IMG/VR virus record: IMGVR_UViG_3300032328_000934
Location: 14,975-78,974 of that record
Strand: one strand, 5' to 3'
Source of the DNA: a virus
Taxonomy: Duplodnaviria > Caudoviricetes
Length of the DNA stretch: 64,000 nucleotides
Below the pieces are notes generated by a model. That model was not told the DNA's origin, made no database searches, and saw only the letters and a list, made by a program, of their open reading frames with translations. A program made the translations under genes and the position numbers. Each line of letters opens with the position of its first letter. Positions within the stretch are counted from its first letter, which is position 1. This document shows positions 3,167 through 48,666 of the stretch, one piece after another.

Positions 3167-3171
3167 ATTAA

Positions 3172-3594: not shown

Positions 3595-3599
3595 GGTAT

Positions 3600-3637: not shown

Positions 3638-3643
3638 CATGTA

Positions 3644-3898
3644 TTACTCTTCTACGTTATGAACAACGTAGTCGAGGTCCCAGCAGTTGGCGTTGAGCGA
3701 GATTTGGGTTTTTAACCGCTCGCGAAGTCGCTCGCTTGCGTTGGCCAAGATGAGGTTGTTGAGCTCTTCACTTGGTTGTTCATTGTCCATGTCTTCCGGT
3801 ACTTCGAATACGATTTGCTCGTCGAAAAACACCTGCACCTCAACACCGGAGTATGCGTCATAGTACGCATTACCCCACACATACACTTGCTTCTTCAT
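3644..3898 (-). CDS. small acidic hypothetical protein
   Basis: 84 aa, D/E-rich, GAGG SD. Confidence 0.7.
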   Translation of the reverse strand: MKKQVYVWGNAYYDAYSGVEVQVFFDEQIVFEVPEDMDNEQPSEELNNLILANASERLRERLKTQISLNANCWDLDYVVHNVEE

Positions 3899-28369: not shown

Positions 28370-29919
28370 TGACAGATGTTTATAAAGAAGAAGAGCTCTC
28401 CCCTAGGCAAGAAGAACTGGTCACTGACTTAATAGAACTTACTGATCGATTTGGTAAGTTTGGCCAAGGCGTTGACAGCGAGGGATCACACTACACTCCC
28501 GCAGAAAACAACCCATTCAAATCAGAGGGTTTAATCTGTGCTAACTGTGCGTTCTTTAGTCCAGATAGTAATGCTTGCTCAATTGTTATGGGTGTCATTG
28601 AACCAGAGGCAATTTGTAAGTTTTGGGTTATTGAGAATGCCGAGCTAGGTTCAGAACCGGAGGACATGCTTCAAGAAGAGGAATCGGCTATGGCCGCTCG
28701 TTACAGCGGTATTGACTTCTCGCCCCCAGCGGGTGTAAAAGCCGCCGCTAAACGTGGTCTTGCTTTGCACGACAAAGGACTCAGCGGTGACGGTCTTGAA
28801 TCGGCTACTGTGCTATGGGCACGAAAGTATACACAGGGTAAACCTGTAAGCCCAGAGCGCGCTCGAATGGGTAATCGATTCTACGGAAGAAACGCTCGAT
28901 TTGCGACCGCACCAAAAGACTCGCCTGCGTGGGTTTCGTGGTTGTTGTGGGGTGGGAGTTCTGGTCAAGGCTGGTTTGCAAAATTGGTCAAACAGATGGA
29001 TGCAGCTGACAAAAAAAGTTCGGCATCAGTGAGCGGTGCAATTTGTCTTGCAGAGGAGGCAATTGCAAACCCCTTCCTTAAGGAAATTTTTCTTATTCTT
29101 ACGGATTTTGAGCCGAACGCAAATGGGGAAGGAATTCCACGTAGCGAGGCTGAAAATATTATAAAAACTTCTCGGTTGACGCCGATTAAGATAGCCGCAG
29201 ACGAGAAGTCTTACGGTGGCCATACGGGAGCACACCCTGTAGGTGCGATCATCGAGTCATTTATGGATAACCATAATGGTAAAGATGTTATAAAAGCTCG
29301 CGCTTTTATTTGGAAAGACGAGTATCCCGCTATTTATGACCTTGTAAAGAGTCAAGCGTCCGAAGGTAATTTTATCGGTACTTCTTGGGAAGTTTACTAC
29401 ACTCATGCTGAGGAGGAGAAAGGTGTCCGCTGGCTTCGGGATGTAACGTTTGCAGGTACTTGTATTGTTGACAACCCTGCGTATGGAGATCGCACCCCGC
29501 TGCTTAGTGTCGCTGAAAAACAAACTATGGATTTAAAAGAATTAGAAGACAAAGTAACAGAGCTGACTGCACTGATTACACAAAAGGAGATTACAATTAA
29601 TGAGCTCGAGTCGAAAATCAATGTATACCAAGAAACCGACCGGCAAGCCCAAGCCGAGCGGCGGAAAGCGCAAGTAGCACAACAGTTAAGTGCTGTTTTT
29701 TCAGAAGCTGAAGTTTTGGAAAAACTTGCGTTTTACCTTGCCCTTGACGATGCTGTTATTCAGCAAGTACTTACCGATCTTACTAAGACGGTAAAGTCGA
29801 CGTCGTCTGAAAAGAAAGAACCGGTCTTTGTTCCCGAGCCCACCGGTGCCCCGTCAAATCCGACTGATCCAAAAACTCTTGCGGCGGCAATCAAACAGAG
29901 CCTTAAGGATTCAAAGTAG
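28369..29919 (+). CDS. multidomain prohead protease/scaffold
   Basis: Cys4 N-domain, WLLWGG domain, protease-like H..HPVG/GTSWEV/GTCIVDNPAY, C-terminal coiled coil; upstream of the capsid genes. Confidence 0.7.
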   Translation: MTDVYKEEELSPRQEELVTDLIELTDRFGKFGQGVDSEGSHYTPAENNPFKSEGLICANCAFFSPDSNACSIVMGVIEPEAICKFWVIENAELGSEPEDMLQEEESAMAARYSGIDFSPPAGVKAAAKRGLALHDKGLSGDGLESATVLWARKYTQGKPVSPERARMGNRFYGRNARFATAPKDSPAWVSWLLWGGSSGQGWFAKLVKQMDAADKKSSASVSGAICLAEEAIANPFLKEIFLILTDFEPNANGEGIPRSEAENIIKTSRLTPIKIAADEKSYGGHTGAHPVGAIIESFMDNHNGKDVIKARAFIWKDEYPAIYDLVKSQASEGNFIGTSWEVYYTHAEEEKGVRWLRDVTFAGTCIVDNPAYGDRTPLLSVAEKQTMDLKELEDKVTELTALITQKEITINELESKINVYQETDRQAQAERRKAQVAQQLSAVFSEAEVLEKLAFYLALDDAVIQQVLTDLTKTVKSTSSEKKEPVFVPEPTGAPSNPTDPKTLAAAIKQSLKDSK

Positions 29920-30675: not shown

Positions 30676-31620
30676 ATGAATAAAGAAGCTTTAATGAAGT
30701 CTGTTGCCGAAGTAGCAAAGACGGCCGGTACCTCACAGTCAGGTAAATCGGCATTTGCCGAGTTGCTTATTCAACTTGTAGAGCCCAATCACTTGTCTCT
30801 TGACTTGTTCTCGACTTTTATGCCGAGCCGACAAGCGAGCCTGAATGACGTTGCCATCAAGCGCGTACGCCGCGGTAAATACTCGGTTCAATCAATGGTA
30901 CCGGGTACTTCCCATCTTGTGTCACAGCCAACGACTGTGCACGATTATCATAGCTACGTCTTCGATCGTTTGATCGGCGGTGTGCGTGAAAGTCTCTGGA
31001 ATGTGCAAAACGGCGCGGTTCAAACTGTCGATCAAATGCGTCAGCAACTGCAATTCGATCTGACCGACAACCTTGTTGCCCGTGTGTTTAACTTGTTGAC
31101 CTCAACTTGGAATTCGACGGACACCCCCAGTCACTACGCCCAAACCGCCGCAATCACTGCTGCCGGTATGGACACGATGATTGAAAACGTTATGTACACG
31201 GCCGGTACCGTCAAAGCTATTATCGGTACTCGTCGATCGCTTTTGCCTATGTACAAGTTTGCGGGTTTTAAAGAATACGCTTACGCTGATGGCAACGGTC
31301 GTATTGCTTACCCAATAAACGACAAGTTGATGGAATACCTCAACACCAGCCGTGTGGCTGTGTACATGGGTGTACCCATTATTGAACTGCCGCAAGTATT
31401 CCGCAATCAATTGCCTAACTTGCGTGAGCCACTCATTCCCGAAGATAAGATCATCGTGGTGGGTGACAACGCCGGTGAAATTTTGATGTACGGTGGTACT
31501 GAATACTACGAATCAACTGATGCATCAATCCAACCACCCGACTACGTGCTCCATGCGTGGATGCAGTACGGTATGGTTGTGGACATGCCTGAAAATATCG
31601 GTGTAATTAAGATCGTCTAA
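30676..31620 (+). CDS. major capsid protein (HK97 fold)
   Basis: 314 aa, YMGVPIIELPQ and WMQYGMVV..PENIG motifs, biased codon usage, synteny. Confidence 0.85.
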   Translation: MNKEALMKSVAEVAKTAGTSQSGKSAFAELLIQLVEPNHLSLDLFSTFMPSRQASLNDVAIKRVRRGKYSVQSMVPGTSHLVSQPTTVHDYHSYVFDRLIGGVRESLWNVQNGAVQTVDQMRQQLQFDLTDNLVARVFNLLTSTWNSTDTPSHYAQTAAITAAGMDTMIENVMYTAGTVKAIIGTRRSLLPMYKFAGFKEYAYADGNGRIAYPINDKLMEYLNTSRVAVYMGVPIIELPQVFRNQLPNLREPLIPEDKIIVVGDNAGEILMYGGTEYYESTDASIQPPDYVLHAWMQYGMVVDMPENIGVIKIV

Positions 31621-31631
31621 GGAGCATAACA

Positions 31632-32144
31632 ATGGCAATGAACAACATATATCACATGATGCAGGGTAGCGCTTATAAGCGATACACTAAAGTTCCCATC
31701 AACTTGGTTGGCGGCCTTCGTGTTGACCCGACTGACACTCGATTGCAGATTGGATGGATACTACACACGGATGAAACTGACTTTGATTTCGCCACCAAGA
31801 AACGTATGCGGTTCGTGTATGAAAATGAGGTTATTGAAATCTACTCAGAATCTGAAGATAAGTTATTTCGAAAATTAAACTCGGGGTTGTTTCGTGCAGG
31901 TTTGTTAAAAGAATTTTTCGAAACTGATGAAATAGTTAATTCTCCAAATTTTGTAGATGACTCTGAAATTAGTCGAATAGTAGAGATTCGGTCGCTGACT
32001 GAATTTCAGGCAACGATTGCCAAGTTTGACGCTCTCGCTACTCTTGAGCGAATCAAACAACAACTTATAGATCAAGGTAAATCCGTTAAAAAAGTACAGC
32101 TTTTAGAAAATAGAATAAAAGAGGTAAGTGATGTCGTGGACTGA
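31632..32144 (+). CDS. hypothetical head-module protein
   Basis: 170 aa directly after MCP. Confidence 0.65.
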   Translation: MAMNNIYHMMQGSAYKRYTKVPINLVGGLRVDPTDTRLQIGWILHTDETDFDFATKKRMRFVYENEVIEIYSESEDKLFRKLNSGLFRAGLLKEFFETDEIVNSPNFVDDSEISRIVEIRSLTEFQATIAKFDALATLERIKQQLIDQGKSVKKVQLLENRIKEVSDVVD

Positions 32145-32505
32145 CCAAGCCCTTACAGTACGGGCAGCTTCTGAGTCTTTTTTAGTTGACACTTGTACCG
32201 TTCGTACGTTTAATGGCTACAGTACTATTGACGGTGAATACACAGAATCCTTTACAAATGTAAACAACATTCCCTGCCGGTTAATAAATCGGCAGGGAAG
32301 TGTTGTACAACAACCTGATTCGCAGGAACGTGCTATGCAACTTCTGACGTCAGTAAATACTATTAGAATACAACTTCCATATGCAGTGGCTCTTACCGAA
32401 AAAGATAAAATTATTTATAACAACGTTACCTACGATGTAACGTATGTACCAGTAAAGCACAGTCTTATGGGAGCGTTTGTAGTACAAATTGAAAAAAGAA
32501 AATGA
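32131..32505 (+). CDS. head-closure (stopper) protein
   Basis: DTCTV..IPCRL..I.LPY...L...DKIIYN..TYDV pattern. Confidence 0.7.
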   Translation: MSWTDQALTVRAASESFLVDTCTVRTFNGYSTIDGEYTESFTNVNNIPCRLINRQGSVVQQPDSQERAMQLLTSVNTIRIQLPYAVALTEKDKIIYNNVTYDVTYVPVKHSLMGAFVVQIEKRK

Positions 32506-33029
32506 ACTCCGCCGAAAAAATAGAAAGATTTATTGCCTATTACGAGCGTCTTCCAGAGAACGTAACGTTAGTCATAAAAAGACAATTAGAGTCAAGTATC
32601 GTTGAGTATTTAAACTCGCTAACTCCTGATGAAACGTATCGAGCACTGGCAGATCTTAACGGCGGTGTAGTTCCGGACACGTTACCTGCGCTACCATCAC
32701 ACCGAGTTCACGTTTCTGAACGAGTGCCTGACGAGATAGTTGACCGATTAGAGTCGCACATATATACAAACGCTATTATGGACTTATATAAACTCGGCCA
32801 CGAACTCACGTTAGCGATTACTAGTGAAAGAATAAACGTGAACTCGGTTAGTAAAATGGTAGATCAGGCGGTGGCTACTGCCGCGGAAGATAGCAACCCA
32901 GTACTAAACGCGAGCTTAAATAGCTTTATTGCTTCTATTTGTACCCCGATCTACGATAAGTTTGCCGCGGACATTGTAGTAGATGTTAATAAAGAAGTAG
33001 CAGCCCGCGTTAATTCACTATTCAAATAG
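32502..33029 (+). CDS. neck-region hypothetical protein
   Basis: 175 aa, synteny. Confidence 0.55.
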   Translation: MNSAEKIERFIAYYERLPENVTLVIKRQLESSIVEYLNSLTPDETYRALADLNGGVVPDTLPALPSHRVHVSERVPDEIVDRLESHIYTNAIMDLYKLGHELTLAITSERINVNSVSKMVDQAVATAAEDSNPVLNASLNSFIASICTPIYDKFAADIVVDVNKEVAARVNSLFK

Positions 33030-33994: not shown

Positions 33995-34396
33995 ATGATT
34001 GATTATGCATTTGGTTCGGGAGAGTACTACGAAAGCGTAGACGATTTATTACGAGATGACTCAATTCTCGAGGTCGATATTACTATAAAAGGTTTATCGA
34101 AGCGGGTGCGTATTCGCGCACTGTCGTTCTTGCAGATGGAAAAGATTAATCAACAGTCGTCAAAAAACGGCGAGATTGATAACATTGAATTTACGGTTAA
34201 CACTTTGGCAGAGGGCCTCGTTCGCCCTAAGATGAACCCAGCACAGGCGCGTAAGCTTTTAGAGGCTAATGGGGAGGTCGTACGTGAAGTCGCAGAAAAT
34301 ATTTGGACGCTTGGAAAAATTAGCAAAGACATGTTCGACAAGTACATCCAGACACTACAAAAAGACGCCGACTTATCGACCGACAAGTCGGAATAA
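33995..34396 (+). CDS. tail assembly chaperone (G-like)
   Basis: V.IRALS motif; between tail tube and TMP. Confidence 0.75.
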   Translation: MIDYAFGSGEYYESVDDLLRDDSILEVDITIKGLSKRVRIRALSFLQMEKINQQSSKNGEIDNIEFTVNTLAEGLVRPKMNPAQARKLLEANGEVVREVAENIWTLGKISKDMFDKYIQTLQKDADLSTDKSE

Positions 34397-34448
34397 CGGT
34401 ATACACTTATTTCTTCGTACTGCCGAATCGACTCGGGAGGAACTGGGC

Positions 34449-34658
34449 ATGTGGGTAGATCATTTTCTTCTACCTACTCAGTTCAATGCGTTACACGCTA
34501 AGAGTCTATCAGCGCTTACCTACGCACATTTGGCAGTCGTTATTGTAGCAAGACTGAGGTCACTCGAAGGTAGTGTGAGACGAAAGGAGAAACAGGCTAT
34601 TGAGAAAGAAAGAATTGAATTACGGAAAGAGGCCGATCTATTAGAACAATTTTTATAG
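34449..34658 (+). CDS. second tail chaperone segment (T-like); own ATG or frameshift product
   Basis: Frame open from before 34269; GGAGG before ATG 34449. Confidence 0.5.
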   Translation: MWVDHFLLPTQFNALHAKSLSALTYAHLAVVIVARLRSLEGSVRRKEKQAIEKERIELRKEADLLEQFL

Positions 34659-34668: not shown

Positions 34669-37600
34669 ATGGCCGATGAGATACAGAAAGCAACAGAAGA
34701 TTTAAAACTACTGTTGCAGGCTTTGGAGGCTGTCAACGCAACTGAAAAGGGAGCAGCGCAGATTAAACCAGTGCTGGCAGAAATAGGCGGTAAAGAAGGT
34801 TTAGACGCATATAAAAGTGTAGCTGATTCAGCTGAAGCAGGAGTTTACCTGAGTCAATTGAACTCAATGATCAAGGCGCACGAGCAAATAAATAGACTTA
34901 TTCAGGAACAGATTCAACTAACTAAAACAGCAACCGAGTCAATGTCATCAAAACCAGCTCAAGGGGCAGATCAGTCTTGGTGGAATACAGTTGAACCCGC
35001 CCAAGTCTCAGTTCAAGCTCCAGCTCCAGCAGTCCCTGCTCAAGCCCCAGCAGCTCCGAGCAGGCCTGCCCCCGTGCGTGTGTCGAGATCTTCAAGTGAA
35101 CCGGTTGTTCTTCCCGTAGATCACAGAGATTCTACACAATACGCTTTGGTAAGCAGCAACACGGCACCGCCGTTAAGAAGTAGTGTCGGAAACCGCCCGC
35201 AAGGAGTTTCTGATACAGAATCAATTATTAAATACATTTCGGAAAATCCACATTTGCTTGCAACTCCTGCGGGTACCTACGACGAGGCAACAACTAAGAA
35301 AATAGTATATCTTCAACAATTAGTTGAAAGGGCATTGAAAGGGAAATCGAATAAAAATGCAGAAGCACTAATAGTCAATCAATTCAGAAGTTTATTTCCT
35401 GTAACAAAGGACTCTACTTTTCGTCAATTACAGGGCAGTGTAGGAGATCGTCCTGCTGGAATGGACTCACTTGAAAAAATTGTACAGTATGTCTCACAAA
35501 ATCCCGAGCAATTGGCGGCTGTTTCTGAAAATACACATACTGAAGAGACTGTTGAAAGATTAAATTCTTTTTTACAAGGGATTGCAAAAACTCGTTCGGG
35601 ACGTGCTGACTCTGCAACTAGAGTTCAAACTGTACTTGATTTTAGAAAACTTTTTCCTAAAGATTCTTCCAAAGTTGCAACCCAAGATTCACGCGCCGTA
35701 CTTATCGATACAATAAAAAGCGTGTTTAGTCATATAGGCATGGCTGATATGCCAGCCATTCAAAATTTACCTGAAGCAAACGACCAGTATATAATGGATC
35801 TTTTAAAGGATTCGATTGCGCGAGTCGGGGTAGTTAATCCGGATACAGGTCGGGTGAACGTAGCCAACTTAGAAGTCACACCTACGCCCTCAAGACTGGT
35901 TCGCATTATACGTGGATTAGGGAGAGTTGTTAAACAAGCAATTACGCGCCGTTCAGTCAGCACATCTGAGGTAGACGCGAGTGATCTATCTGCAGAAGTA
36001 ATAACACAAGTAGAAGATTTTAGAGAATCTGACCCTATTGAAGAACAGGTGCTGGCTGATGAAATAGGCGGAAAAATTTTTAAACCAATAGGTAATAGTG
36101 GCGGTGGCACAGTCTATGCGAGATCAAGCAGGTTTACAAATAATAAAGCGCAAGAGTCGTTGCGAAATTCAATACGAGGTAATAAAGATTATAAAGAAAA
36201 TGTAGAAGAAATTCAGGATAAAGTGGCTAATGCTCAAGGTACTGATGTAACTGGCTATGATGCTTCGTCCGTATTTCCAATATCTAGTGTTCAATCAATA
36301 TCCCAAAGTATTAAGGCCCAACGCGAGCAAGTAAACGAAGAAATTGTTGCCGGTAAGTTTAAAGAAGTTGAAATTGGCGGCAGAATTTACAGATTACCTG
36401 AAACTTTAGCAAACAAACAAGTGGCTATTGCTCGCGCCGCTCACTCGATGAGTAAAGATACTAGTCTTGTAGGTAGACGCGCTCGAAGTGATAGAAAAGG
36501 TGGCATAGGTATTTACGGTGCCGCTTCTATACAGGATGAGACAATCAACTTACACGCCGCGGCAATGCTCGAGCATTATCTTAGCAACCCAGAAGAACCA
36601 ATAGAATCTAGTTTAGATTCTCAGTTTATGCGCGAGGTTGTAACTCAAGAATTAGATATAGATCAGCCTAGAGATGCTAATACTCAAAATGCTTTGCGCT
36701 TGTATGCACAACGTTCTATAGAATCTTTGCAATCAACAGCTGACTTTGCGTATGAGAATGTGGCCGCAGCTACAAACCCGGCAGGCAGGACTGCACAAGT
36801 AAACTTTGCAGAACGGACATTGCAGCAAAAAGCATTTATAGAAAAAATTCTTTCAGCCAAGACTTCCAGAGAAGAGCGCGGCAGGATGTTAGATATACCT
36901 AAGCGTGTTTTGACCCCAGAATTGCAAGAACAACGAAATCAAATACAAAAGAAAGCAATTCAAAATTTACTAGATCAAGGTCATAGTGCAGATAAAATAA
37001 AAGAACTTGCAGAAAGTTATGCTGAGGGTACATTAACTCCTGAACAGCGACGTCCACTTCAGGAGTTAATCGACTTTGATACACATAATGAAAGAACCGT
37101 AGAAGTAGAGGGTGAGTATGAACCTTTAACAATTGATCAGGCATTAACGTATATCTACGGTGCTGATATTGCAGCAGTACCTAAGTTTGAGGACGCCTCC
37201 ATAGGTATACGAAGATATGCTACTAAAGTCAGCAAAGGGCTTGCTAAAAAGGGAGTCGCCCGTCCGGCAAGGCCTTACCGAACTAAAACTACTTTCGGTA
37301 AAATTATGGGTACTGCAACAAATGAGGGAATGTACGAATCGCTGGATGATAAACTTAAAAAAGAATCTAGTTTTGAAGATCAGCTGAGCTCAGTTGGGCT
37401 TAGAGGTACAGAGCGTGATTACCGAGATGCAGAAAGACCGGGTGTTGCTCCAGATACTGCACTAACCGGTCCTAATATGACTCGACCGTTAATGATGCGG
37501 CAAGAAATATATGATTTAGTAGACGATTTTTTTGGGCTCTCTACTGATAAAAACGCTGGCCTACTGAGCACCGTCAACTACGCGAGTCAACTCACAGATG

Positions 37601-40600
37601 GAAAAAGTGCAATAAATACTCCAGAGGAGATAAAACACACATACGATTATTACGCAGATCCAGAGGGACTAACCCCTAAGGATGCGTTAGGTTCTTTATT
37701 TGCTGGTGCTGAGGATTTTCGTAGTTTAGCCGACACAAGTCTACCTATAATTGACTATGCAAAACTAGCTACAAAAGAGTCGAGGTCTGAGTATGAACAG
37801 AGTGCATTAGATACAATTCAAAAACGAAACCCGGCATTTGCTCAATTTGACGAAGATCAGTTAAAGCGATTAGCCGCCGTAGATGTGACCAAGTCGCCTA
37901 AACAAATCGTAAGGCAAATAATTGAGATTATTGGTAAACAAGTACAAGAAGCAATTATAAGAGCCAGCACTAGAATACTAACAAGGCAAATGCAAGACAA
38001 GGCGTTAACTGACGCAGCCCAAAATGAAGATGGAATTCCGGGAATTGCTGGATTTACATTAGATCAGATAAAAGCGTTGGCCAACGCTGATACCTCAGAA
38101 TTACCATACGATCCAGCATTAGATAGTAGCGACGAAAATACGCGATCTGAAGCCATGCAACGACGCGATGAGCGGGCGTATGAAATAGATGTAATAAATC
38201 AAGTTAGAAGAACAGCGGCAGATGCAGCAAATCAAGCAGAATCACAAATTCAATCCATGCTCAATGATTACGCGACAAACGGAAATCGACCAAGAGATAA
38301 AGCGCAGGCGGAGCTTTTTGATGCTCTTGATTTTTTTGAGTTAGATACTTTTGATAACGACCTTGGTATAAACAGCGCATTTGGCCTAATTGATCGAGTG
38401 ATTGAAGATCAAACTGGTGGCATGAGTCAGCTTGACTTTTTCTCAAGTACGATGGGAAATGCTGTACCAAACTCTTCGGTAGCGGTTGACTCGAGTGAAG
38501 ACACGAGAAAGGCTGTGTTAGAAATCGGCCGAACTACTGCTCAAGAAGAAGCCGGAAGAACAACTGGTGTCACTGCTGTTCGGCGTAAAAAAGATTACGG
38601 TGAAGAGTATGACAGTAATCAACAATATGCTGAAGGTTTAATACAAAAATCGAAAAGTGCCGATGAATCCAAACGCAAAGAAGCTTTGCAAACTATTGCA
38701 ATGCATCGAGCAGTTGCTAAGCAAAGGGGTGGCGATCCAGCAATGTGGGCGTCTGAGGGCTTGATCGGGCAGGAAGAGGGGTTTAGTGGAGACCATGTAT
38801 CAAGAGCCATTCAGTTCTTAAATTACACCGCTCTGCAAAAAAAAGCTGCGGCAGGTGACACAGATGCACGGGAGGAAGCTGCTCGTATTGATGAGCAACG
38901 TGCTCTAGTTCGAGAACGCGCTTTGAACGTGGACGAGACCGCAAGGTTTCAATATAACCCCATACTTGGCGAAAGAGCCTATATTACAGTAAGCCCGTCG
39001 GGTCGAGAACTGTTACAAGGAACTCCTTACTCAGGTCAAGTTAAAACAGCAAATATGCAGGACGAATTTGGGGAGGATGTATACGAGACTGGAACTGACA
39101 TGAATCCGTTAATTGATTCGATTGAGAAGGCTAGTCTCCCTACGTTCCGTGAATCAGGAAATCCGGAATTGTACCGAGAGATGGTTTTGCTACGAAATCC
39201 AGACTTGCGAGCAATAGTTGCACAGACCAATCGGCAACTTAATCAAATAGGAAACGAGGACATAGATTCCGATTTTTTTCCCAGTGACTTAAATGATACC
39301 AGCCCGGGCGGACAGGCTGATCAAATAGACGATATGATATTGCAATTATTGAAGCGCAGAGAAGAAATCAAAAAGAAAGATAATAGAGACATGGGGCAGA
39401 CCGACTCGCCTATTCTCTCCTACTCTGCGGAAAGGTTGGTTGGTGAGCAATTAGGTGAAATGTCTACCGACGCGTACAATCGATTACATATAAACTCCGC
39501 TGCTTCATTACTTAGTGAACAAGAACGCGAAAGTTTAACGCAGGAGAGAGAAAATCTTATAAGAGACACTGGCTCAGTAAGGAAGTTTAAGCCAAGTTCA
39601 GCAAAAGAGAAAAATCGTTTACATGAAATAAACAAAAAACTTGCACAAGATTCTGCTACGAGAATGGCAATGGATCCACGCTTTGCGACACCGACCGGTA
39701 TTGGAACACCTCAGTTACTTGAGGCTATTGCACTAACTGCGGAAAACCCTGACAGAAGCGGTGTAGCAAACAAGGCAATTGAAATGTTGGCTGAGCTAAC
39801 GCCCGAAGAAATAGATTTTTTAAATACACTTGACTTAAGTGACAAAAAGAAGCGCGAGGAAGCTATCAAAAACGGTCCTACATCTGTTGTAAACTTACTT
39901 AAAAAAATAAATTTTAGAGACCCCGCTATTAAAAAGCTTTTAGCTAGCAATTATACCTTAAATATTGGAGAAGAGTCGACGCGTCGAGGAGATAGAACTT
40001 CACCAAGAAACCCAAGGCAAGCAGCTAAAAGAAGTCGGCTTCAATTAGCCAGCGATGCACTTGCAGTAAAAGAAACGGATGATTTAGGAGCATTTGTAGA
40101 ACCCGCAGAACCTAAAAGTAGTTTTAAAGTAACAACCAATGAAGATTTAATTAAGCAGATTAGGGCGTTAGATCTCGATACCGAGGAAGGTTTAGCGGAA
40201 GCCGAAAAGGTGGTAAGAGCTTCAGAGTCAGAAACGCCACTTCCCGAAGATCCAACTTTAAGAAAAGACATAGTAAAGTATTTAGTAGCTAGGTACGTAA
40301 AAAATCTTAGCAGGCCACAATCTGCACCGACGCAGTCGAGGGCTGGAGCAGTCGTTAAAAATCTGAAAGGTGTAAACGCGGTTGTTGCAGCGGAGCGTAG
40401 AGGTGAAGGTGTTAGTACACTTCGTAAACAGGGTGTAGGTGATGCACACTACGGTAACCCGTTCACACTGCAAAAACCACAAGCCGGTGAAGTACCAGTA
40501 ACTTCAGTTAAAGAAGCGGTCGATCGGTATAAAGCGTGGTTGGCAGGAACCGCCGATCAAGATGTCAAACCGGAACAGCGCGACTGGATTCTTTCACAGA

Positions 40601-43600
40601 TTGACGCGGGTGCTCTTGATGACCAAGATCTTCTGTATTACACTCAATTGAACGAGCCGTCACATGCCGATGCATTGGCTGAATTTGTAAATAATCGTAA
40701 GAGATCCGTACCAGAGCCTGAGGTTGCAACTGCGCCCGCAGTCTCTGCGCCTATGCCAGCACCAGCACCCAAAGCAGAAAAACCAAAAAGAACTAGAACA
40801 AAACGGGAGAAACCAGTTAAAGAAGTTACTCCCCCACCTGCTGAAATTGTAAAAGCTCCTGAACCGGAACCAATCGTAGTAGCTCCTGAACCAGAACCGG
40901 CCGTAGTAGCTCCTCCGCCTATATCAACTGAGACCCCTAAGCCTTCTAGCACTACCAGAGAAAGAATGACTTTGCAAGAAAGAAGGTCACGTTTGGTAGC
41001 ATTACGGTTAAAGCAAAGACATTTACCGGCAAACTCGGAATTGAATAAAAAGTACCTAACACTTCAAAAACGCAAGCCTGTTTGGTATGATGAGGATGAT
41101 ACAAATCTTGAAGCGGTAGAAGAGAAAATGAGGGAGGACTCGATTGAGCTTGGACCTCGCCACAATAGAAGCGCAAGAATAAAAGCGGCTAATAAATATA
41201 TAGATTCAATAGGAGCCCAAGTAGATGACTCCGCTGATAGCCCGCAATATGACGCTATTAGTAAGGTAAGCATGGCGAGTGACCTCGAGACAGTTGAAAG
41301 ATTAGAGTCGCGTCTTGGCTTAAGCCCGTACAAAGAAAGTCCTGTTGTACCTAGTGTAGCAACAACTCCAACACCTACTACACCTCCAGTAGCACCTTCT
41401 GAATCTACAGCTTTAGCTAGAGTTCCTAGTACGGCATTAGCTAGAGTATTGACTGCCGCCCTAGCTACAGTTCCACCCTCTACAGCATTAGCTACAGTCC
41501 CAAGCTCTACAGCATTGGCTAGAGTAGTAACTACAGCGTTGGCTACGGTTCCCGCCTCTACGGCGTTAGCTACAGTTCCAAGTTCCACAGCGTTAGCTAA
41601 AGTTATAACTACAGCGTTAGCTACAGTTCCTAGAATTGCAACTCCTGCACCCACAACCGTCACAGCTCCTACAACGCCGCTTCTTACTGGCCCGACAACT
41701 ACAGCATTAGCCACAGTGCCTAAAACTCCAGCTCCTGCAACACCTGCAACTACAGCTCCACCGGCAACAACTACAGCCTTAGCTGTGGTTCCTAAGACTC
41801 CGGCCCCTTCAACTGCGGCAACACCTGCAACTCCGACTGTACCTCCTGCAACTACAGCATTAGCAGTTGTTCCTAAAACTCCGACTCCTGCAACTCCTGC
41901 TCCTAAAGCTCCAATTATAACTCCACCTCCTGCAGCTGCTACGGCTTCGACAGTACCACTTCTTACTGGCCCTACAGCACCAGCACCTCTAATTACTTTT
42001 AGTGGAGAACCAACTGCTCCATTACCAACTATTACTGTTCCACCTGTAGCTCCTGCAACTGGACCTGCTGGGACTTCACCAAGAACTCCAAGAGCTCCAA
42101 GAGCTCCTAAACCAGCACCAGCACCAGCACCTCTAATTACCTTTAGTGGAGCTCCGACTGCTCCAATTGTTTTACCGACTGTTCCGCCTGTAACTGTAAC
42201 TCCAAGAGCTCCTAGAGCTCCAAGAGCTCCTAAACCACCACCGGCACCAATTGTTCCTTTTAGTGGAGCTCCGACTGCTCCATTACCAACTATCACTGTT
42301 CCACCTGTAGCTCCTGCAACTGGACCTGCTGGGACTTCACCGTCCACGGCTCCGTCTGGTGGTGGTATTACTGCACCGGGTGCAACTATTACAGTTACCG
42401 GCGGTACAGTTACCATTACCGGATCAACAGTTACTGGTGGAACGGGTGGCACTGGCGGTGCGGGCGGAAGCGGAACGGGTGGCACTGGCGGCACTGGTGG
42501 CGGTGGTGGCGGTGGATTCCGCAGAAGTAACCTAACTGACATGATTTTTGGTCAGATGGACGTACTAAGTGACAGAACTAAAGATGTTATACGCGCGGCT
42601 CCTGATGAACCAGCTCGAATAGCGCTTGTACAGGCAGCACGGGATCGATATGCAAAGTTACAACAAAAAGCATTGCAAACTCAAATAGACTACGGATCGC
42701 CGAGCATGATACTTAATCCTACGGTGCCCGGGCTTGTAGCGGGCTTAGATACTAGCAAAAATCCATTGCAAGACTTAAATACTATGACAGAGGCCGTGCT
42801 TCAGGATCAAATAGCTAGTGCTGTAGAAAGAGATCGAATTGAAAATGATCCAACTTTATCAGCCGCGGACAGAAAACTTGAACTCGCCGCCTTAGACGCA
42901 TCCGATCGAGAACTTAATGATTTTGCGGCCGTACTAAAAAAAGTTACAGAAGATCTCAATCGATTTCAGCAAGCGGTCCGAGTACCCAATACGGCATTTG
43001 GTAATACTTCTGGTAGGGGTGGTGGTGGTGGTGGCGGTCCAACAATTCGTACAGCTTCAGGTAAAGTATTGTCAGAGGCCGACGTACTGGCATTATCTGA
43101 TCTAGAAAGTAAACGAAATTTATACGCCTCCTTTCAAGGAAACCTGCCAAACTTAGGTTCTCGTTTTGATTCGCAATTAGATTTGACACGGAGAACTCGT
43201 AGATTTGCTGATGCAACACTTTCACAACTACCCGCCGTTGATTTAACAGGCGTTGACTTTATGGGCGACGTTGCAAAAGAGACTGCAGCAAATGCGGCAG
43301 CTGCTGAACTGCAAGATGCAATAGCACAGATAAAACCGAACACACTTGAAACTAGGCCTATTGAGGAACTTGCAGTTGATTTGTCGAGAGTTAACGAAGC
43401 GGCAATAAAACTTAACGACGTTATAGAAGGTGCTGGTAATGTAGATGCTGCACAAAGTGGTATACAAAACGTAGTAACAGCAACTGGATTTGCGGAAAGA
43501 CAGCAAGCAAGATCTGGTGCCGAGATTGATAAACAATCGGCATCAAATGCAAGAAACTTGGAAGAGAATATGCAGGCAATTGTCAGTCAGCCCGGATTGA

Positions 43601-46600
43601 TTCGCCGTCTAACCGGTGGTGTACAAAGAGAGGGCGCCCAGCATGTGCGTGAATATCTCAGAGGAATCTTCGGCGACTCTGCTGAAGGACGCAAGGCAAC
43701 TGACACTATGTTTTACAAAGATCAGATGGTTGCGTATGATGATCGAGGACGACGCCGTAATATTGTAGGTGCAAGTACACAAGAATTGCAGAACCTGCAG
43801 GCGCGAGTGAAAGCCGAAAGTGGCATGGACGTATCAATGGATGACCTCCAGCGTACTCAGCGTGCAATGGCTCGTGTTCAACAAGCCCGCAATCAATCAC
43901 CGTTTAATGACGTACTGTCGTACGGTATGTCGAAAATGCGGGATCTTGACTCACTTGGTCAAACTGTGATGGGTGTTATGAATGCACCCCAAACTATTGC
44001 ATCTACAATCAGTCAAATTGGCGACCCTCAACTTCGTACCGATCGCATAATGACCACAGCCAGAGCGTTGTCATTAAGTCCAGAAACGTACACCAAAGCG
44101 CTTGCCGCCGCTACGCAACAACAATCAAGATTTGGTGGTACACTGTCAAAAAACTTGGAGGACATGACCTCATTTATTCCTATATCGAATACGTACGGAG
44201 TGGATGTCGGCAAGTCAGTTCAAGTAGCAAGAAAGCTGGCCGCGTTTGACCCAGCACAAGGAATGCAAGGTGCAAGTATTGCGCTTAAAGAATTTTTATC
44301 GGGTAACGTGTCTTCATTGAGCCGTCGTTTCGAAATTAATCGTAGCGATTTGTCAAAGATCAACACCGGCGATGCGAACGAAATGTTGGATTCACTCGAC
44401 ACCCTTCTAGGTAAAATGGGTGTTACCGATAAACTTATTGACGATCAAGCGAACTCGTTAGCAACTAAGTACGACCGCATGACAGGTCGTCTTGAAACAA
44501 TGCAAGTGGGCTTTAGTGCATTCGCTGTTAATGCCATGACGCCAATACTTGAGCCAATACTTGGAGACAAGTCTTTCCTTGCAAAAGGTGCATTAGATCA
44601 AAATTTGCAAAAAGTTGTTACGGAGCGGTTAAAGTCCTATGGGGACTCAGTGCTAAGCGATCCCAAGACTGGATTAAAAACAGTAGATGTTTTTTCTTCG
44701 GATTTTGTTAAAAAACTGGATCCACTGTTAGGTGCAGCAAACGACTCAACTTCTACCGCTGCGTTAGATTTTACAGGTATGACTGGGAACGTGTCCAACG
44801 TTGAGTTGTACAGACGAATGGGTAATATGAGCGATAGCGATCGACGCCGTATTCAACAGAGTGCTCAAATGAGTGTACTGATGGGTATGAATCAAGAACC
44901 CGCAATACTTAAAGCTATGCGCGATGTGGGCGGGGACTTTTTTAGCGGCGAGGAATTTCAAGCACAAAGAAGACCGTTAGGATTCTACGGTCAAGCTATG
45001 GATGCACCGTTAAAAAGACAAATGCTGGATCAAGCAGAAAAGGGAATGAAATTGGGTCAGGAGGGTCAGCAGGTTGAAATTCTCCATCAAGTCGATGCGG
45101 ACACATATGACGTTAGAATGCCCGACGGTAAAAGAGAACGAGTTCGTCTTGCAGGGGTAGATGCTCCTGAAAAAAATACTAAGGAAGGTCAGCAAGCCAG
45201 TGCCTATGCTCGTTATCTGATTGGTACTGACCCTAATAACCCAAAAAATAAGAAAAAAACCGCTACTTTGTACTCAAAAGGTGACCGCGATGCTTACGGT
45301 AGACTTATGGGTAGTGTAGCAGTCGGTGGTCGTGATCTCGGTACTGCGTTGGTTGCTAGCGGTAGCGCGGCAGTCTATAACTTTGAAGGTAAATACGGTG
45401 AAGATCTTATTGCACCGTTGTCAGCACTAGAAAGAAATGCCGCAAACACAGGAATGGGCCCAATAAATGAGCAAGCCGCTCGATTAGGTTTGGGCGCTAA
45501 CTCGGAAATTTCACAAACAGTCAGAGATAAGTATTTTCGAGATAAATACATGAGTGTAGGAGGTCTCTACGGGGCTGTGGGTGGTGCTATTGGCGGCACT
45601 ATTCTCGGCGGTGTAAATGCCTTCACCGCACTTGGTGCAGCAGGTGGCGTAGCCGGAGCTGCAGGCGTAGCTAGTATACCGGTACTCCCGATTGCAGCGG
45701 GTATAGCTGCCCTCACCGCCGCAGGCACTATCGGTTACTCCGCGTATACAGATAGTAAAGATACTAGTGCCCCAAAAATGCGTGAACTGTACCGATTGCA
45801 AAGTGAGGAGGATTTACAAAAACAATCGGAAAACGTCGGTAATCAACTGTACAGACAAGCGGCGAGAGACAATCAAGCAAGAGCTTCTTTTGAACAAAAT
45901 GCAAAAAATCCTTTTCAGCAATTGTATGCCAAATCGTTTAATTATTTTAGTCCGACTGAGTCACAGAAAGCACGCGAGGCATTTGTAAGTCAGTACACTG
46001 AATCAGGCAAAGAGTTATCTAAGTATTATAATGGCTTAGCATCAGACCAAAAGAAAGTGTACGAACTGGTTGTTAATGATCCCGCAACAAAACAACGCAC
46101 AAGTGTATTTAAAGCAATTCAAATGTATCAATCGCTAATTTATCGCGATGCAGAAAAAACTGATATAGTTGCTCATACATTACTTGAGCAGAACGAAAGT
46201 AATTATAATGACTTTGCAAGTCGAGTGTACGACACCATGCAGGCATCAAAATTAATCGAAACTGCCCAAGAATACGGAATTCGAACTACGTATGAAACAC
46301 CGTATAAAGGAACTGGACCAATGGAGGCTCAACGTACCATGGGTACGGTAAGCAGTGTGATGGATCTGCAGCAGTTCTATGATCTAAGCAAAGAGCAGCG
46401 CGACTCTGTAGCAAAGCAGCTAGATGAGGCAATCAACACTCCAAGTTGGAAACGGTTTGCAACGGAATATACAGATCAAGCGATGGAAAAGCAATTTGCA
46501 ATGTCACAGCAGAGATTTACAACGTTTGTCGACAATACTGCATTGAACTCGTTGGCAGGTATGAATCCGGGTCAACTAAGTTCCTCCGTCTTTGGTTTTC

Positions 46601-48666
46601 GATCAACCGGTACTGGGAGAGCACTTGAGGATCCGTTAGACTCTGAAGGGAATCCAGTCAGTGCGTTAGTCGCACCGTCGCTGCGTGCAATGAGTCGTAC
46701 TATTTTTAACGAAGGCGTAGACTACGATGAATCTGGCAAAGAGAAGCTAAAAACTGCACAAGAGCAGGCGGTCAAGTCACTTGAACAACAGATAGTAGCG
46801 TACAGAGAACAAGAGGATTTAACGCGGCCGTTTAATTTAGCACTAAAAAGCACTTACAGTAATTTTATACAAACACTGCAAAAATCCGCGGGTGGGTATA
46901 GCGACATTATGACGTACCTTTCTCAAGGTAATCCACGTGGGTTTCTTGACGTCAGCCAGCAAATGAGCGGTTTTAATATGCAATCAATTATGCAGAACCG
47001 GATTACTACACAAAATCAAGGTGTAATGGGTATAGGTAGCGTTGCTGCAGGAACATCGGGGCCAATTGCAACCGGTAGGTCATTTAACTATGGATACACA
47101 ACTGGTCCTCAGGGTACGATTCAATATGCGAGAGACTTTATGAGGGCACCTGAGCGATCGTTGTTTAACCCGGCCGCAATTGAATCAGTTATAATGCAGG
47201 GAGTTCAGGCCAATACAGAAATCGTACAACGCAATCTTGACTTTAGCCGCAAACTCCGCGATGCTGAGTTAGCCAACAGACGCGCTATTGAAGATATTAA
47301 TCTAAACGGTATGCGTAGTTTGGAGGATATTCACCGCACATATACAAGAAATATGATACAATTAGCACAGCAATCCGAAACGTCGAAACGTTTAGGAACA
47401 GCGCAGTTTTACACCGGTGCAGTAGCAGCAAATATAGATCCAAATGAAAAAGCAAGAATCACCGCTTCGCGCGAACAAGGTCAACAAAAAGCGTCGCACA
47501 TCGAGCAGGCAGATGTAGGCACGTATCTTAAATCAAGTGACGGTATGCAAGATACAGAATTACAGAAAGCTTATGCAGAATACCAAGCGACCCCCTTTAC
47601 AAATGCTACCGTAAAAGAAGCGTCTTGGAAAAAAGTGATGGATATAGTGCAGGTTCGAAGAAGTCAGACCAAGGCCAGAATGGAGAACGCCACTGAAGTT
47701 CCGGAGCGATCTGCTGCAGAAGCGCAATTCGGTTTACTTTCTGATAATTATGATCGTGGTCAACAATATCGAAAATACGTAGATGATATGTATAACCAAC
47801 AGATGGAATTTGCAGGAAGAAGAAAGCAGTTGGGGATCAATCGCGTTGACTTAGAACGTGAGGGGGGACGTCTTCGAGAAAAAACTCCCGAGTTAGCAAT
47901 GCAGCTAGGTAAGGCACGGACTCCCGAGGAAATTAGGGCTGCTAGAAATGCGATAGAGGATAACAACGTTGCTATTCAGAAGAACAGCGAGGCACTAGCG
48001 CAGAATGCCCGTGAGTTAGAGTCAGTAACTATCACTGCCCCACTCTGGGCTGATAATTGGCGTGAGGCTGGAAAACAAATTTTAGAAAGTTCTACAAGCA
48101 CTATTTCAGGTTTGTTAAACAACTTGGAAGATTTTAATATAAATTATGCACGGCAACTAGAGGATGCTTATAAAGGCTTTAATAATGCAAAGAAAGATAT
48201 GATTAAGCAATTCACAGATGCCGCAATTGAAATTTCTCAAGCAGTTCCTGCTGAATTTGCAGGAGCGCTTAGCGCGATAACTGCGTACCAACGAATGTCT
48301 CTTAAGGCCGAAGCTTACTACAACTCGGGTAATGTTGAAGCAGCCCGATCAGTACAAAAATTAGCAAATTATAGTCTAGCTGGCTCATTGTATCCAAAGG
48401 GTAGCGTAGAGTATGACGCAATGGTAAATCAGCTTGACTCAAACGTAACAAGCATGACCGCAGAAGGAATGCGAAAAGACGATTCTACTTTAGGGCCATC
48501 CGGTTTAGGCGCGTACGGTGAAATGGGTCCTGACGGTAAGTACGTTTTGCGGGTTGTAATTAGGGGAGAAACTAAAACAACCAATACCCCTCCTCCGGGT
48601 GGTAGTCAAGGAGGAGACGGGCAAACAGGTAATGGCAGTTCAACAGTAACAGGAACCTTACAATAA
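34669..48666 (+). CDS. giant tape measure protein with embedded DUF4326-like, mucin-like and thermonuclease domains
   Basis: 4665 aa after the chaperones; tape-measure core near 44030-44500 (GASIALKEFLSGNVSSLSRRFEI); helical C-terminal part. Confidence 0.85.
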   Translation: MADEIQKATEDLKLLLQALEAVNATEKGAAQIKPVLAEIGGKEGLDAYKSVADSAEAGVYLSQLNSMIKAHEQINRLIQEQIQLTKTATESMSSKPAQGADQSWWNTVEPAQVSVQAPAPAVPAQAPAAPSRPAPVRVSRSSSEPVVLPVDHRDSTQYALVSSNTAPPLRSSVGNRPQGVSDTESIIKYISENPHLLATPAGTYDEATTKKIVYLQQLVERALKGKSNKNAEALIVNQFRSLFPVTKDSTFRQLQGSVGDRPAGMDSLEKIVQYVSQNPEQLAAVSENTHTEETVERLNSFLQGIAKTRSGRADSATRVQTVLDFRKLFPKDSSKVATQDSRAVLIDTIKSVFSHIGMADMPAIQNLPEANDQYIMDLLKDSIARVGVVNPDTGRVNVANLEVTPTPSRLVRIIRGLGRVVKQAITRRSVSTSEVDASDLSAEVITQVEDFRESDPIEEQVLADEIGGKIFKPIGNSGGGTVYARSSRFTNNKAQESLRNSIRGNKDYKENVEEIQDKVANAQGTDVTGYDASSVFPISSVQSISQSIKAQREQVNEEIVAGKFKEVEIGGRIYRLPETLANKQVAIARAAHSMSKDTSLVGRRARSDRKGGIGIYGAASIQDETINLHAAAMLEHYLSNPEEPIESSLDSQFMREVVTQELDIDQPRDANTQNALRLYAQRSIESLQSTADFAYENVAAATNPAGRTAQVNFAERTLQQKAFIEKILSAKTSREERGRMLDIPKRVLTPELQEQRNQIQKKAIQNLLDQGHSADKIKELAESYAEGTLTPEQRRPLQELIDFDTHNERTVEVEGEYEPLTIDQALTYIYGADIAAVPKFEDASIGIRRYATKVSKGLAKKGVARPARPYRTKTTFGKIMGTATNEGMYESLDDKLKKESSFEDQLSSVGLRGTERDYRDAERPGVAPDTALTGPNMTRPLMMRQEIYDLVDDFFGLSTDKNAGLLSTVNYASQLTDGKSAINTPEEIKHTYDYYADPEGLTPKDALGSLFAGAEDFRSLADTSLPIIDYAKLATKESRSEYEQSALDTIQKRNPAFAQFDEDQLKRLAAVDVTKSPKQIVRQIIEIIGKQVQEAIIRASTRILTRQMQDKALTDAAQNEDGIPGIAGFTLDQIKALANADTSELPYDPALDSSDENTRSEAMQRRDERAYEIDVINQVRRTAADAANQAESQIQSMLNDYATNGNRPRDKAQAELFDALDFFELDTFDNDLGINSAFGLIDRVIEDQTGGMSQLDFFSSTMGNAVPNSSVAVDSSEDTRKAVLEIGRTTAQEEAGRTTGVTAVRRKKDYGEEYDSNQQYAEGLIQKSKSADESKRKEALQTIAMHRAVAKQRGGDPAMWASEGLIGQEEGFSGDHVSRAIQFLNYTALQKKAAAGDTDAREEAARIDEQRALVRERALNVDETARFQYNPILGERAYITVSPSGRELLQGTPYSGQVKTANMQDEFGEDVYETGTDMNPLIDSIEKASLPTFRESGNPELYREMVLLRNPDLRAIVAQTNRQLNQIGNEDIDSDFFPSDLNDTSPGGQADQIDDMILQLLKRREEIKKKDNRDMGQTDSPILSYSAERLVGEQLGEMSTDAYNRLHINSAASLLSEQERESLTQERENLIRDTGSVRKFKPSSAKEKNRLHEINKKLAQDSATRMAMDPRFATPTGIGTPQLLEAIALTAENPDRSGVANKAIEMLAELTPEEIDFLNTLDLSDKKKREEAIKNGPTSVVNLLKKINFRDPAIKKLLASNYTLNIGEESTRRGDRTSPRNPRQAAKRSRLQLASDALAVKETDDLGAFVEPAEPKSSFKVTTNEDLIKQIRALDLDTEEGLAEAEKVVRASESETPLPEDPTLRKDIVKYLVARYVKNLSRPQSAPTQSRAGAVVKNLKGVNAVVAAERRGEGVSTLRKQGVGDAHYGNPFTLQKPQAGEVPVTSVKEAVDRYKAWLAGTADQDVKPEQRDWILSQIDAGALDDQDLLYYTQLNEPSHADALAEFVNNRKRSVPEPEVATAPAVSAPMPAPAPKAEKPKRTRTKREKPVKEVTPPPAEIVKAPEPEPIVVAPEPEPAVVAPPPISTETPKPSSTTRERMTLQERRSRLVALRLKQRHLPANSELNKKYLTLQKRKPVWYDEDDTNLEAVEEKMREDSIELGPRHNRSARIKAANKYIDSIGAQVDDSADSPQYDAISKVSMASDLETVERLESRLGLSPYKESPVVPSVATTPTPTTPPVAPSESTALARVPSTALARVLTAALATVPPSTALATVPSSTALARVVTTALATVPASTALATVPSSTALAKVITTALATVPRIATPAPTTVTAPTTPLLTGPTTTALATVPKTPAPATPATTAPPATTTALAVVPKTPAPSTAATPATPTVPPATTALAVVPKTPTPATPAPKAPIITPPPAAATASTVPLLTGPTAPAPLITFSGEPTAPLPTITVPPVAPATGPAGTSPRTPRAPRAPKPAPAPAPLITFSGAPTAPIVLPTVPPVTVTPRAPRAPRAPKPPPAPIVPFSGAPTAPLPTITVPPVAPATGPAGTSPSTAPSGGGITAPGATITVTGGTVTITGSTVTGGTGGTGGAGGSGTGGTGGTGGGGGGGFRRSNLTDMIFGQMDVLSDRTKDVIRAAPDEPARIALVQAARDRYAKLQQKALQTQIDYGSPSMILNPTVPGLVAGLDTSKNPLQDLNTMTEAVLQDQIASAVERDRIENDPTLSAADRKLELAALDASDRELNDFAAVLKKVTEDLNRFQQAVRVPNTAFGNTSGRGGGGGGGPTIRTASGKVLSEADVLALSDLESKRNLYASFQGNLPNLGSRFDSQLDLTRRTRRFADATLSQLPAVDLTGVDFMGDVAKETAANAAAAELQDAIAQIKPNTLETRPIEELAVDLSRVNEAAIKLNDVIEGAGNVDAAQSGIQNVVTATGFAERQQARSGAEIDKQSASNARNLEENMQAIVSQPGLIRRLTGGVQREGAQHVREYLRGIFGDSAEGRKATDTMFYKDQMVAYDDRGRRRNIVGASTQELQNLQARVKAESGMDVSMDDLQRTQRAMARVQQARNQSPFNDVLSYGMSKMRDLDSLGQTVMGVMNAPQTIASTISQIGDPQLRTDRIMTTARALSLSPETYTKALAAATQQQSRFGGTLSKNLEDMTSFIPISNTYGVDVGKSVQVARKLAAFDPAQGMQGASIALKEFLSGNVSSLSRRFEINRSDLSKINTGDANEMLDSLDTLLGKMGVTDKLIDDQANSLATKYDRMTGRLETMQVGFSAFAVNAMTPILEPILGDKSFLAKGALDQNLQKVVTERLKSYGDSVLSDPKTGLKTVDVFSSDFVKKLDPLLGAANDSTSTAALDFTGMTGNVSNVELYRRMGNMSDSDRRRIQQSAQMSVLMGMNQEPAILKAMRDVGGDFFSGEEFQAQRRPLGFYGQAMDAPLKRQMLDQAEKGMKLGQEGQQVEILHQVDADTYDVRMPDGKRERVRLAGVDAPEKNTKEGQQASAYARYLIGTDPNNPKNKKKTATLYSKGDRDAYGRLMGSVAVGGRDLGTALVASGSAAVYNFEGKYGEDLIAPLSALERNAANTGMGPINEQAARLGLGANSEISQTVRDKYFRDKYMSVGGLYGAVGGAIGGTILGGVNAFTALGAAGGVAGAAGVASIPVLPIAAGIAALTAAGTIGYSAYTDSKDTSAPKMRELYRLQSEEDLQKQSENVGNQLYRQAARDNQARASFEQNAKNPFQQLYAKSFNYFSPTESQKAREAFVSQYTESGKELSKYYNGLASDQKKVYELVVNDPATKQRTSVFKAIQMYQSLIYRDAEKTDIVAHTLLEQNESNYNDFASRVYDTMQASKLIETAQEYGIRTTYETPYKGTGPMEAQRTMGTVSSVMDLQQFYDLSKEQRDSVAKQLDEAINTPSWKRFATEYTDQAMEKQFAMSQQRFTTFVDNTALNSLAGMNPGQLSSSVFGFRSTGTGRALEDPLDSEGNPVSALVAPSLRAMSRTIFNEGVDYDESGKEKLKTAQEQAVKSLEQQIVAYREQEDLTRPFNLALKSTYSNFIQTLQKSAGGYSDIMTYLSQGNPRGFLDVSQQMSGFNMQSIMQNRITTQNQGVMGIGSVAAGTSGPIATGRSFNYGYTTGPQGTIQYARDFMRAPERSLFNPAAIESVIMQGVQANTEIVQRNLDFSRKLRDAELANRRAIEDINLNGMRSLEDIHRTYTRNMIQLAQQSETSKRLGTAQFYTGAVAANIDPNEKARITASREQGQQKASHIEQADVGTYLKSSDGMQDTELQKAYAEYQATPFTNATVKEASWKKVMDIVQVRRSQTKARMENATEVPERSAAEAQFGLLSDNYDRGQQYRKYVDDMYNQQMEFAGRRKQLGINRVDLEREGGRLREKTPELAMQLGKARTPEEIRAARNAIEDNNVAIQKNSEALAQNARELESVTITAPLWADNWREAGKQILESSTSTISGLLNNLEDFNINYARQLEDAYKGFNNAKKDMIKQFTDAAIEISQAVPAEFAGALSAITAYQRMSLKAEAYYNSGNVEAARSVQKLANYSLAGSLYPKGSVEYDAMVNQLDSNVTSMTAEGMRKDDSTLGPSGLGAYGEMGPDGKYVLRVVIRGETKTTNTPPPGGSQGGDGQTGNGSSTVTGTLQ

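Follow-up and report, generated by a model that had tools for sequence, protein, structure and literature searches.

Ordinary tape measure proteins (TMPs) with embedded enzymes include T5 pb2 and the mycobacteriophage TM4-type TMPs, which carry cell-wall hydrolase motifs. In Thermus phage P23-45, the TMP gp96 is 5,002 amino acids (aa) long and begins with a virion RNA polymerase of ~1,100 residues (Chaban et al. 2024, PMC10770324); this N-terminal part was detected in virions, and the tail measures ~800 nm (PMC10770324). The gp96 system also covers phages P74-26, G20c and TSP4. Here, we analysed a window of 64,000 nucleotides (nt) comprising bases 14975-78974 of the 78,974-bp IMG/VR virus record IMGVR_UViG_3300032328_000934, which CheckV rates as complete and which belongs to an uncultured, siphovirus-like lineage with genomes of ~75-79 kb. 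One gene of the window (34669-48666, plus strand) is an uninterrupted frame of 4,665 codons that occupies 17.7% of the genome, a share so large that the gene must pay for itself. Its position and the homology of its core support its identification as a genuine tail TMP, and we favour, with moderate confidence, a reading in which the tail lumen stores the entire chain, which is then expelled.

We identified the TMP core by tblastn against 50,697 phage records. Residues 2880-4665 matched solely annotated TMPs (32% identity, E = 2e-10), namely those of phage D6E, the Brevibacillus phages Abouo/Davies and the Clostridium phiCT phages. The core maps to residues 3182-3316, in agreement with a sequence-only reading that had recognised a tape measure core only after about residue 3100, and aligned pairwise with residues 49-180 of the D6E TMP. 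Abouo gp20 is a TMP by its position in a sheath, tube, XkdN, TMP, LysM and gpD module. The matched TMPs are 636-684 aa long and carry the shared segment near the N terminus, with the core within the first 50-300 residues, so the ~3,100 residues that precede it in the window protein amount to an N-terminal extension. The gene also lies where a TMP gene is expected, directly behind a pair of tail assembly chaperone genes and ahead of those for the distal tail and tip, an order that is the same in seven relatives.

The window protein belongs to a family of giants. We found nine others (3,990-5,665 aa) in independent ENA, JGI and IMG/VR assemblies, all with a common domain order; in the seven whose contigs were examined, the syntenic position after the chaperone pair was identical. 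A length-matched search returned three homologues of 4,437, 3,990 and 4,660 aa (ENA and JGI assemblies), and IMG/VR contigs supplied two further frames, one of 4,476 aa and the other at least 4,470 aa long. An exhaustive hidden Markov model search with the N-terminal 870 residues matched only other giants (4,226, 4,973, 4,588 and 5,665 aa) and contig-end fragments. One apparent short relative, P0005 (2,327 aa), was rejected, its gene call being broken by a 100-N scaffold gap within a 4,344-aa frame. A word-based search for shorter proteins akin to residues 1-1900, a tblastn search of the 50,697 phage records with residues 1-2080, and a scan of bacterial and archaeal genomes for relatives, made to infer the host, each found none.

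Comparison of these relatives divided the chain into two parts. The C-terminal module, from residue ~2620 to the end, measured 2,034-2,053 aa in five members with essentially no indels, and every close relative had 1,467-1,490 aa between the core and the end. Upstream of residue 2620, close members measured 1,957-2,620 aa; upstream of the core, the wider family measured 2,524-3,999 aa. The length of the C-terminal module is constant over 43-100% sequence identity, and the variation in total length lies wholly upstream of it. Between the window protein (P0001) and P0003 (L004), synonymous divergence was ~0.28 in the C-terminal module (window 42529-45108) versus ~1.7 in the N-terminal blocks (34669-40068). 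This contrast implies that the two halves recombine independently, and its pattern indicates that a recent recombination exchanged one half of the gene.

One property is shared by both halves. Cysteine is absent from the whole chain in all ten giants (0 residues in 10/10); for the window protein alone, even the low cysteine frequency of the other structural proteins gives a chance of only ~2e-11 of finding none in 4,665 aa. Because the absence extends over the whole chain in every member, it suggests that both halves share one physical fate.

The nuclease that had been read after the core proved to be an SNase (thermonuclease) domain at residues ~3470-3600. It scored above the Pfam cutoff (PF00565, residues 3491-3595; 40.3 bits against a cutoff of 21, E = 4.7e-10) and matched a thermonuclease in the PDB (E = 2.4e-7). 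In the alignment, the equivalents of S. aureus thermonuclease D21, R35, D40, E43 and R87 are kept, and the catalytic set (DADT, R, D-A-P-E and R) is invariant in five homologues; the equivalent of position 41, which in SNase contacts the metal by its main chain, is Ala. Judged by these residues, the catalytic set is intact. The domain lies on the N-terminal side of a membrane-like segment (residues 3630-3690) that forms the sole hydropathy peak of the protein and is present in 10/10 homologues. SNase-type enzymes require Ca2+ and are typically extracytoplasmic; together with the site of the domain before the membrane-like segment, these habits suggest the envelope as a possible place of action, or host nucleic acid at the point of entry as a possible substrate. 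The C-terminal ~975 residues would be expected, by analogy with lambda and T5, to dock at the tail tip. When the whole protein, and also seven to eight pieces of it, were scanned with Pfam, PHROGs and NCBIfam, the only matches were the SNase domain and a weak DUF4326/phrog_464 signal.

A linker joins the C-terminal module to the N-terminal half. Residues 2201-2600 are 48-74% Pro/Thr/Ala and are followed by a Gly-rich stretch, with tandem repeats of 27, 78/81 and 123 nt; composition and repeats together bear out the long low-complexity linker described from the letters. Its length differs between relatives. Exactly opposite the repeats, on the minus strand, lies an antisense open reading frame (ORF) of 492 aa (window 41064-42542), which most likely arises from the composition of the repeats and is no gene.

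Immediately before the linker, a single slot varies in content from relative to relative. It holds a DUF4326-like module in P0001, L007, L008 and L009 and a DEDDh exonuclease in P0004, P0008, P0009, P0010 and P0012, and it is empty in P0002 and P0003. The exonuclease of P0004 exceeded its Pfam cutoff (PF13482 RNase_H_2, 28.3 bits against 22) and matched PDB exonucleases in a profile search (E = 3e-7). Its FDLET, GHNxxxFD and AHxAxxD motifs are invariant in three aligned members, and the first two were also found in P0008 and P0012. The exonuclease alignment also matched the H protein of phiX174 weakly (E = 0.018), a match dismissed as compositional. Separately, HExxH motifs (HEVSH/HEVAH) occur in P0004, P0009 and P0010, at residues 243, 272 and 1304 (L002:10001-23983, L010:4821-19742 and L011:4017-17783); these may represent metallopeptidase-like modules, similar to those proposed to cleave polyvalent proteins into parts.

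The DUF4326-like module gave a weak signal. With a cutoff of 25 bits, PF14216 scored 19.1 in the window protein (E = 0.0021) and 17.3 in L007; phrog_464 matched with E = 2.9e-5. By tblastn against the 50,697 phage records and a PDB sequence search, this piece matched nothing, and its part of the AlphaFold (AF2) model of residues 1261-2100 was below 60 in predicted local distance difference test score (pLDDT). Compared with L007, the module is 82% identical in protein and 71.5% identical in nucleotide sequence, whereas its flanks are 13-30% identical, and 45 codons differ synonymously only versus 31 non-synonymously. The high protein identity and the excess of synonymous differences mark it as a constrained domain. 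A His is kept in a conserved stretch (...LLYYTQL.EPSHADAL...) of a protein without Cys; we take the DUF4326 family normally to have conserved cysteines near the C terminus of the domain. The DUF4326 domain noted from the letters is therefore best described as a constrained module with a suggestive resemblance to that family, its score falling short of the Pfam cutoff. Published work places DUF4326 in the rhodanese-phosphatase superfamily and suggests that it processes the phosphates of ADP-ribose derivatives (PMC9503650; PMC7824862). The cysteine-less version seen here may bind rather than cleave.

Several effector-type domains thus occur in a set that varies among relatives, with SNase and the DUF4326-like module in the window protein and the DEDDh exonuclease and HExxH motifs in others, as in polyvalent proteins. 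The sequence-only reading had proposed that the TMP is built like a polyvalent ejected effector. The conserved TMP module with its SNase domain, the repeat linker and the swappable slot speak for that build, and the proposal as a whole is partly supported.

The remainder of the N-terminal half is helical, has no known fold, and is under purifying selection, although it evolves fast and carries many large indels. Charged residues make up 24-34% of it. Block A (residues 1-870) was modelled by AF2 as mostly helical with a pLDDT of 55.8, and Foldseek against the PDB and a PDB profile search returned nothing; its ratio of non-synonymous to synonymous substitution rates (dN/dS) was 0.17-0.26. Within it, a helical unit of ~68 aa is duplicated in tandem (residues 158-225 and 243-311; 30% identity, E = 6e-8; window 35140-35601), each copy being modelled as a small helical domain with a pLDDT of 75-89. 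A self-comparison for repeated 'fence' motifs across the protein revealed only this one duplication. For residues 1261-2100, which include block B, overall pLDDT was 61.7, rising to 70-90 over residues ~1315-1760. For block B, a PDB profile search returned nothing, Foldseek against the PDB and BFVD and VIA-align gave generic helical matches only (best Z 5.1), and dN/dS was 0.24-0.28. The description of this region as about 1,900 charged helical residues holds for charge and secondary structure; it does not hold for one continuous helix, since the low-to-moderate-confidence models consist of short helices broken by disorder.

Taking these results together, we propose the following course of events. 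The C-terminal ~2,050 residues are the conserved TMP module, comprising the core, a Ca-type SNase, a Gly/Ala segment for membrane insertion and ~975 presumed tip-anchoring residues. The repeat linker connects this module to a ~2,200-residue extension of selected, fast-evolving helical blocks with an enzyme slot. The entire chain would be held in the tail lumen, largely unfolded or as thin helical bundles, and be expelled ahead of the DNA. The C-terminal part would then form a channel through the envelope, and the nuclease and the N-terminal modules would act at or inside the host envelope; by analogy with what is established for TMPs, these modules would be delivered into the host. Tails are known to assemble from the tip along the TMP, as in lambda and T5, and any TMP remaining in the virion must lie inside the tube. 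We consider storage of the whole chain probable because of the P23-45 precedent and because whatever TMP stays in the particle must be in the lumen. The tail would be unusually long, at ~0.3-0.7 micrometres; the lower and upper values would correspond to hairpin and single packing, respectively, of the N-terminal helices. The sequence-only reading calculated ~700 nm for the full chain at the lambda ratio of ~0.15 nm per residue and preferred a partial ruler; given P23-45, with a TMP of 5,002 aa and a tail of ~800 nm, and the logic of tail assembly, a tail of ~700 nm is not implausible.

Several observations weigh against storage of the whole chain or against the identifications beneath it. The structural genes around the giant gene are annotated weakly, because the lineage is remote from isolated phages. 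No TMP model of Pfam, PHROGs or NCBIfam matched the protein (E <= 0.1), although the D6E and Abouo TMPs likewise match no Pfam model, so this TMP subfamily is simply not covered by the profiles. The DUF4326-like match lies below the curated threshold, without the usual cysteines of the family and without a confident fold. Finally, a shorter effective ruler would be equally compatible with the Pro-rich linker and with a C-terminal module of constant length.

That last point underlies the strongest alternative, in which the C-terminal module alone is the ruler (~1,480 aa from the core onwards or ~2,050 aa from the linker onwards, giving ~220-310 nm) and the front half is cut off at the linker, to be discarded as an assembly-time factor or carried elsewhere in the particle. 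All length variation lies upstream of the module, ~3,100 residues are an add-on relative to ordinary TMPs, the halves differ in recombination history, and Pro-rich repeat linkers are typical protease-accessible spacers. The window protein, however, contains neither an HExxH motif nor another protease module, HExxH being confined to P0004, P0009 and P0010. Cysteine is avoided in the N-terminal half as well, even in a domain of a family assumed to conserve cysteines, which is hard to explain for a purely cytoplasmic part that is thrown away. There is no short relative consisting of the C-terminal module alone, and a nested short form would have no ribosome-binding site, no Shine-Dalgarno sequence having been found for an internal start at the border of linker and module; promoter-like sites within the giant gene were no commoner than in shuffled sequence. 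Moreover, the N-terminal enzyme of P23-45 is present in its virions (PMC10770324). We therefore regard a ruler confined to the C-terminal module as unlikely, while giving it real weight.

A second alternative is that the N-terminal ~1,900 residues are a divergent two-barrel virion RNA polymerase of the P23-45 gp96 type. The architecture is analogous, both proteins being giant cysteine-free TMPs with a large N-terminal part that is not ruler; indeed, we computed that gp96 (L012:8288-23296) also lacks cysteine. Yet four homologues share no conserved DxDxD metal-binding motif, the sequence does not resemble that of gp96, the AF2 models of residues 1-870 and 1261-2100 (low-to-moderate confidence) are almost all helical with no beta-barrels, and no RNA polymerase appeared among the fold or PDB profile search matches. 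The lack of the motif, and of barrels in these models, suggests that the N-terminal cargo is not the same as that of gp96, and we judge this alternative very improbable. An assembly or annotation artefact fusing separate genes, a possibility raised by the sequence-only reading and conceivable in that metagenome assemblies can misjoin at repeats such as the tandem repeats of this gene, is effectively refuted by an intact frame under purifying selection over all regions and by at least nine further independent assemblies that hold complete or near-complete versions with an unchanged domain order, the seven whose contigs were examined also having the same neighbours.

Returning to storage of the whole chain, we tentatively suggest, as one possible role that we hold to be less likely than the storage itself, that the first ~2,600 residues form a type of tail-lumen cargo not described before. 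This would be a thin, helical carrier free of cysteine, with a slot into which small counter-defence enzymes can be plugged; it would pass into the host before the DNA does, while the SNase, beside the membrane segment, would act at the envelope. On such a carrier, signals derived from ADP-ribose may be the target of the DUF4326-like module, and nucleic acids or nucleotide signals that of the DEDDh exonuclease of the relatives.

Table 1. Features of the giant tape measure gene and of the genes upstream of it (window coordinates).
Feature	Position	Strand	Remarks
Portal-like gene	28369-29919		Late module
Capsid-like gene	30676-31620		phrog_16565, weakly phrog_29
Head-tail adaptor	32128-32505		Followed by four small genes
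Tail assembly chaperone (G-like)	33995-34396	+	133 aa; weak phrog_344 match 'tail assembly chaperone', E 0.0065; directly 5' of giant gene
T-like frame	34269-34658	+	69-aa ORF from ATG 34449; overlaps G by 128 nt, +1 frame
N-terminal block A	34669-37278	+	Residues 1-870; short helices and disordered stretches
Variable insert	37306-38448	+	Residues ~880-1260; family alignment 85-100% gaps in P0003, L007, L008
N-terminal block B	38449-40068	+	Residues 1261-1800; helical bundle-like, no recognised fold
DUF4326-like module	40429-40728	+	Residues ~1921-2020; cysteine-less; in variable slot
Pro/Thr/Ala-rich tandem-repeat linker ending in poly-Gly	41329-42528	+	Residues ~2221-2620
Start of conserved, length-constant C-terminal module	42529-44211	+	Residues ~2621-3181; 95-100% identical to P0002/P0003, no indels; dN/dS 0.07-0.13
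Tape measure core	44212-44616	+	Residues 3182-3316; tblastn to TMPs; 85-100% identical across family
SNase (thermonuclease) domain	45076-45468	+	Residues ~3470-3600; PF00565
Gly/Ala-rich hydrophobic membrane-like segment	45556-45738	+	Residues ~3630-3690
C-terminal ~975 aa	45739-48663	+	Conserved, no indels

The neighbouring genes (Table 1) continue downstream of the giant gene with five genes of 151, 575, 773, 733 and 1,178 aa, including large tail-tip genes. The late module is siphovirus-like and contains no sheath-sized gene. A 20-kb megablast search against the 50,697 phage records gave no match. A 133-aa chaperone-like gene stands at the equivalent site in every relative whose contig was examined, and relatives carry genes of 69-81 aa at the T-like position. 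From this arrangement, the chaperone pair may be expressed through G-T frameshifting. The chaperone is in frame 2 and the T-like gene in frame 0, so a G-T fusion would need a +1 or -2 shift and not the usual -1, and no canonical slippery heptamer was seen in the 128-nt overlap (window 33995-34658). In one relative, the homologue of window 32502-33029 (L009:1445-2308) is longer, at 287 aa versus 175 aa, and carries an SNase domain of its own by Pfam match; this gene stands between the adaptor and the tail genes, so that a further gene of the virion module bears SNase in this lineage.

Enzymes fused to TMPs are already published, and so are polyvalent proteins. What is specific here is the ordinary size of the genome, the clean division into two parts with a length-constant C-terminal module, the SNase domain inside that conserved module, and the single slot in which a DUF4326-like module and a DEDDh exonuclease replace one another. 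Should packing and ejection involve the entire chain, phage tails would deliver protein as well as DNA, and the ruler would double as a cargo rack. The lineage would offer a tractable comparative system, in which the ruler half is constant, the front half varies and swapping has one clear site; a nuclease would join the enzymes known from TMPs, and the 0.15 nm-per-residue rule could be tested directly for non-ruler inserts. Should the carrier proposal also be correct, TMP-fused effector delivery would be general in ordinary-sized siphoviruses and not peculiar to Thermus or jumbo phages.

Compared with known systems, the window protein shares its ~135-aa core with the TMPs of D6E, Abouo/Davies and phiCT, but these are 636-684 aa long and have no SNase domain and no N-terminal extension. 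As in T5 pb2 and the TM4-type TMPs, an enzyme domain lies beside a hydrophobic segment in the C-terminal half; here, however, the enzyme is a non-specific nuclease rather than a muralytic enzyme, and the protein is four to five times longer. Among the papers ranked by our literature search for tape measure protein together with SNase or thermonuclease, none combined both. With the polyvalent proteins (Iyer et al. 2017, PMC5512222), the giant protein has in common a very large single polypeptide, enzyme-like modules that vary between relatives, HExxH metallopeptidase-like motifs in some relatives and a predicted role early in invasion. By contrast, it is fused to a TMP, a class of protein that PMC5512222 does not mention, and it has few recognisable modules (SNase and DUF4326-like), most of the N-terminal half being helical without a known domain. 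P23-45 offers the closest parallel in layout. In both cases the TMP is a giant of 4.6-5 thousand residues, the phage is a siphovirus with ~80 kb of DNA, a large part other than the ruler lies N-terminal to a TMP that bears hydrophobic segments and an enzyme domain, and the giant gene directly precedes the tail-tip genes. The two differ in that our protein has no detectable similarity to gp96 in sequence, no DxDxD motif and no barrel in the models, in that its embedded enzyme is an SNase where gp96 has a metallopeptidase, and in that the N-terminal slot with alternative small modules and the long Pro/Thr/Gly linker occur here and not in gp96. By analogy, the P23-45 precedent shows that cargo and ruler are not alternatives.

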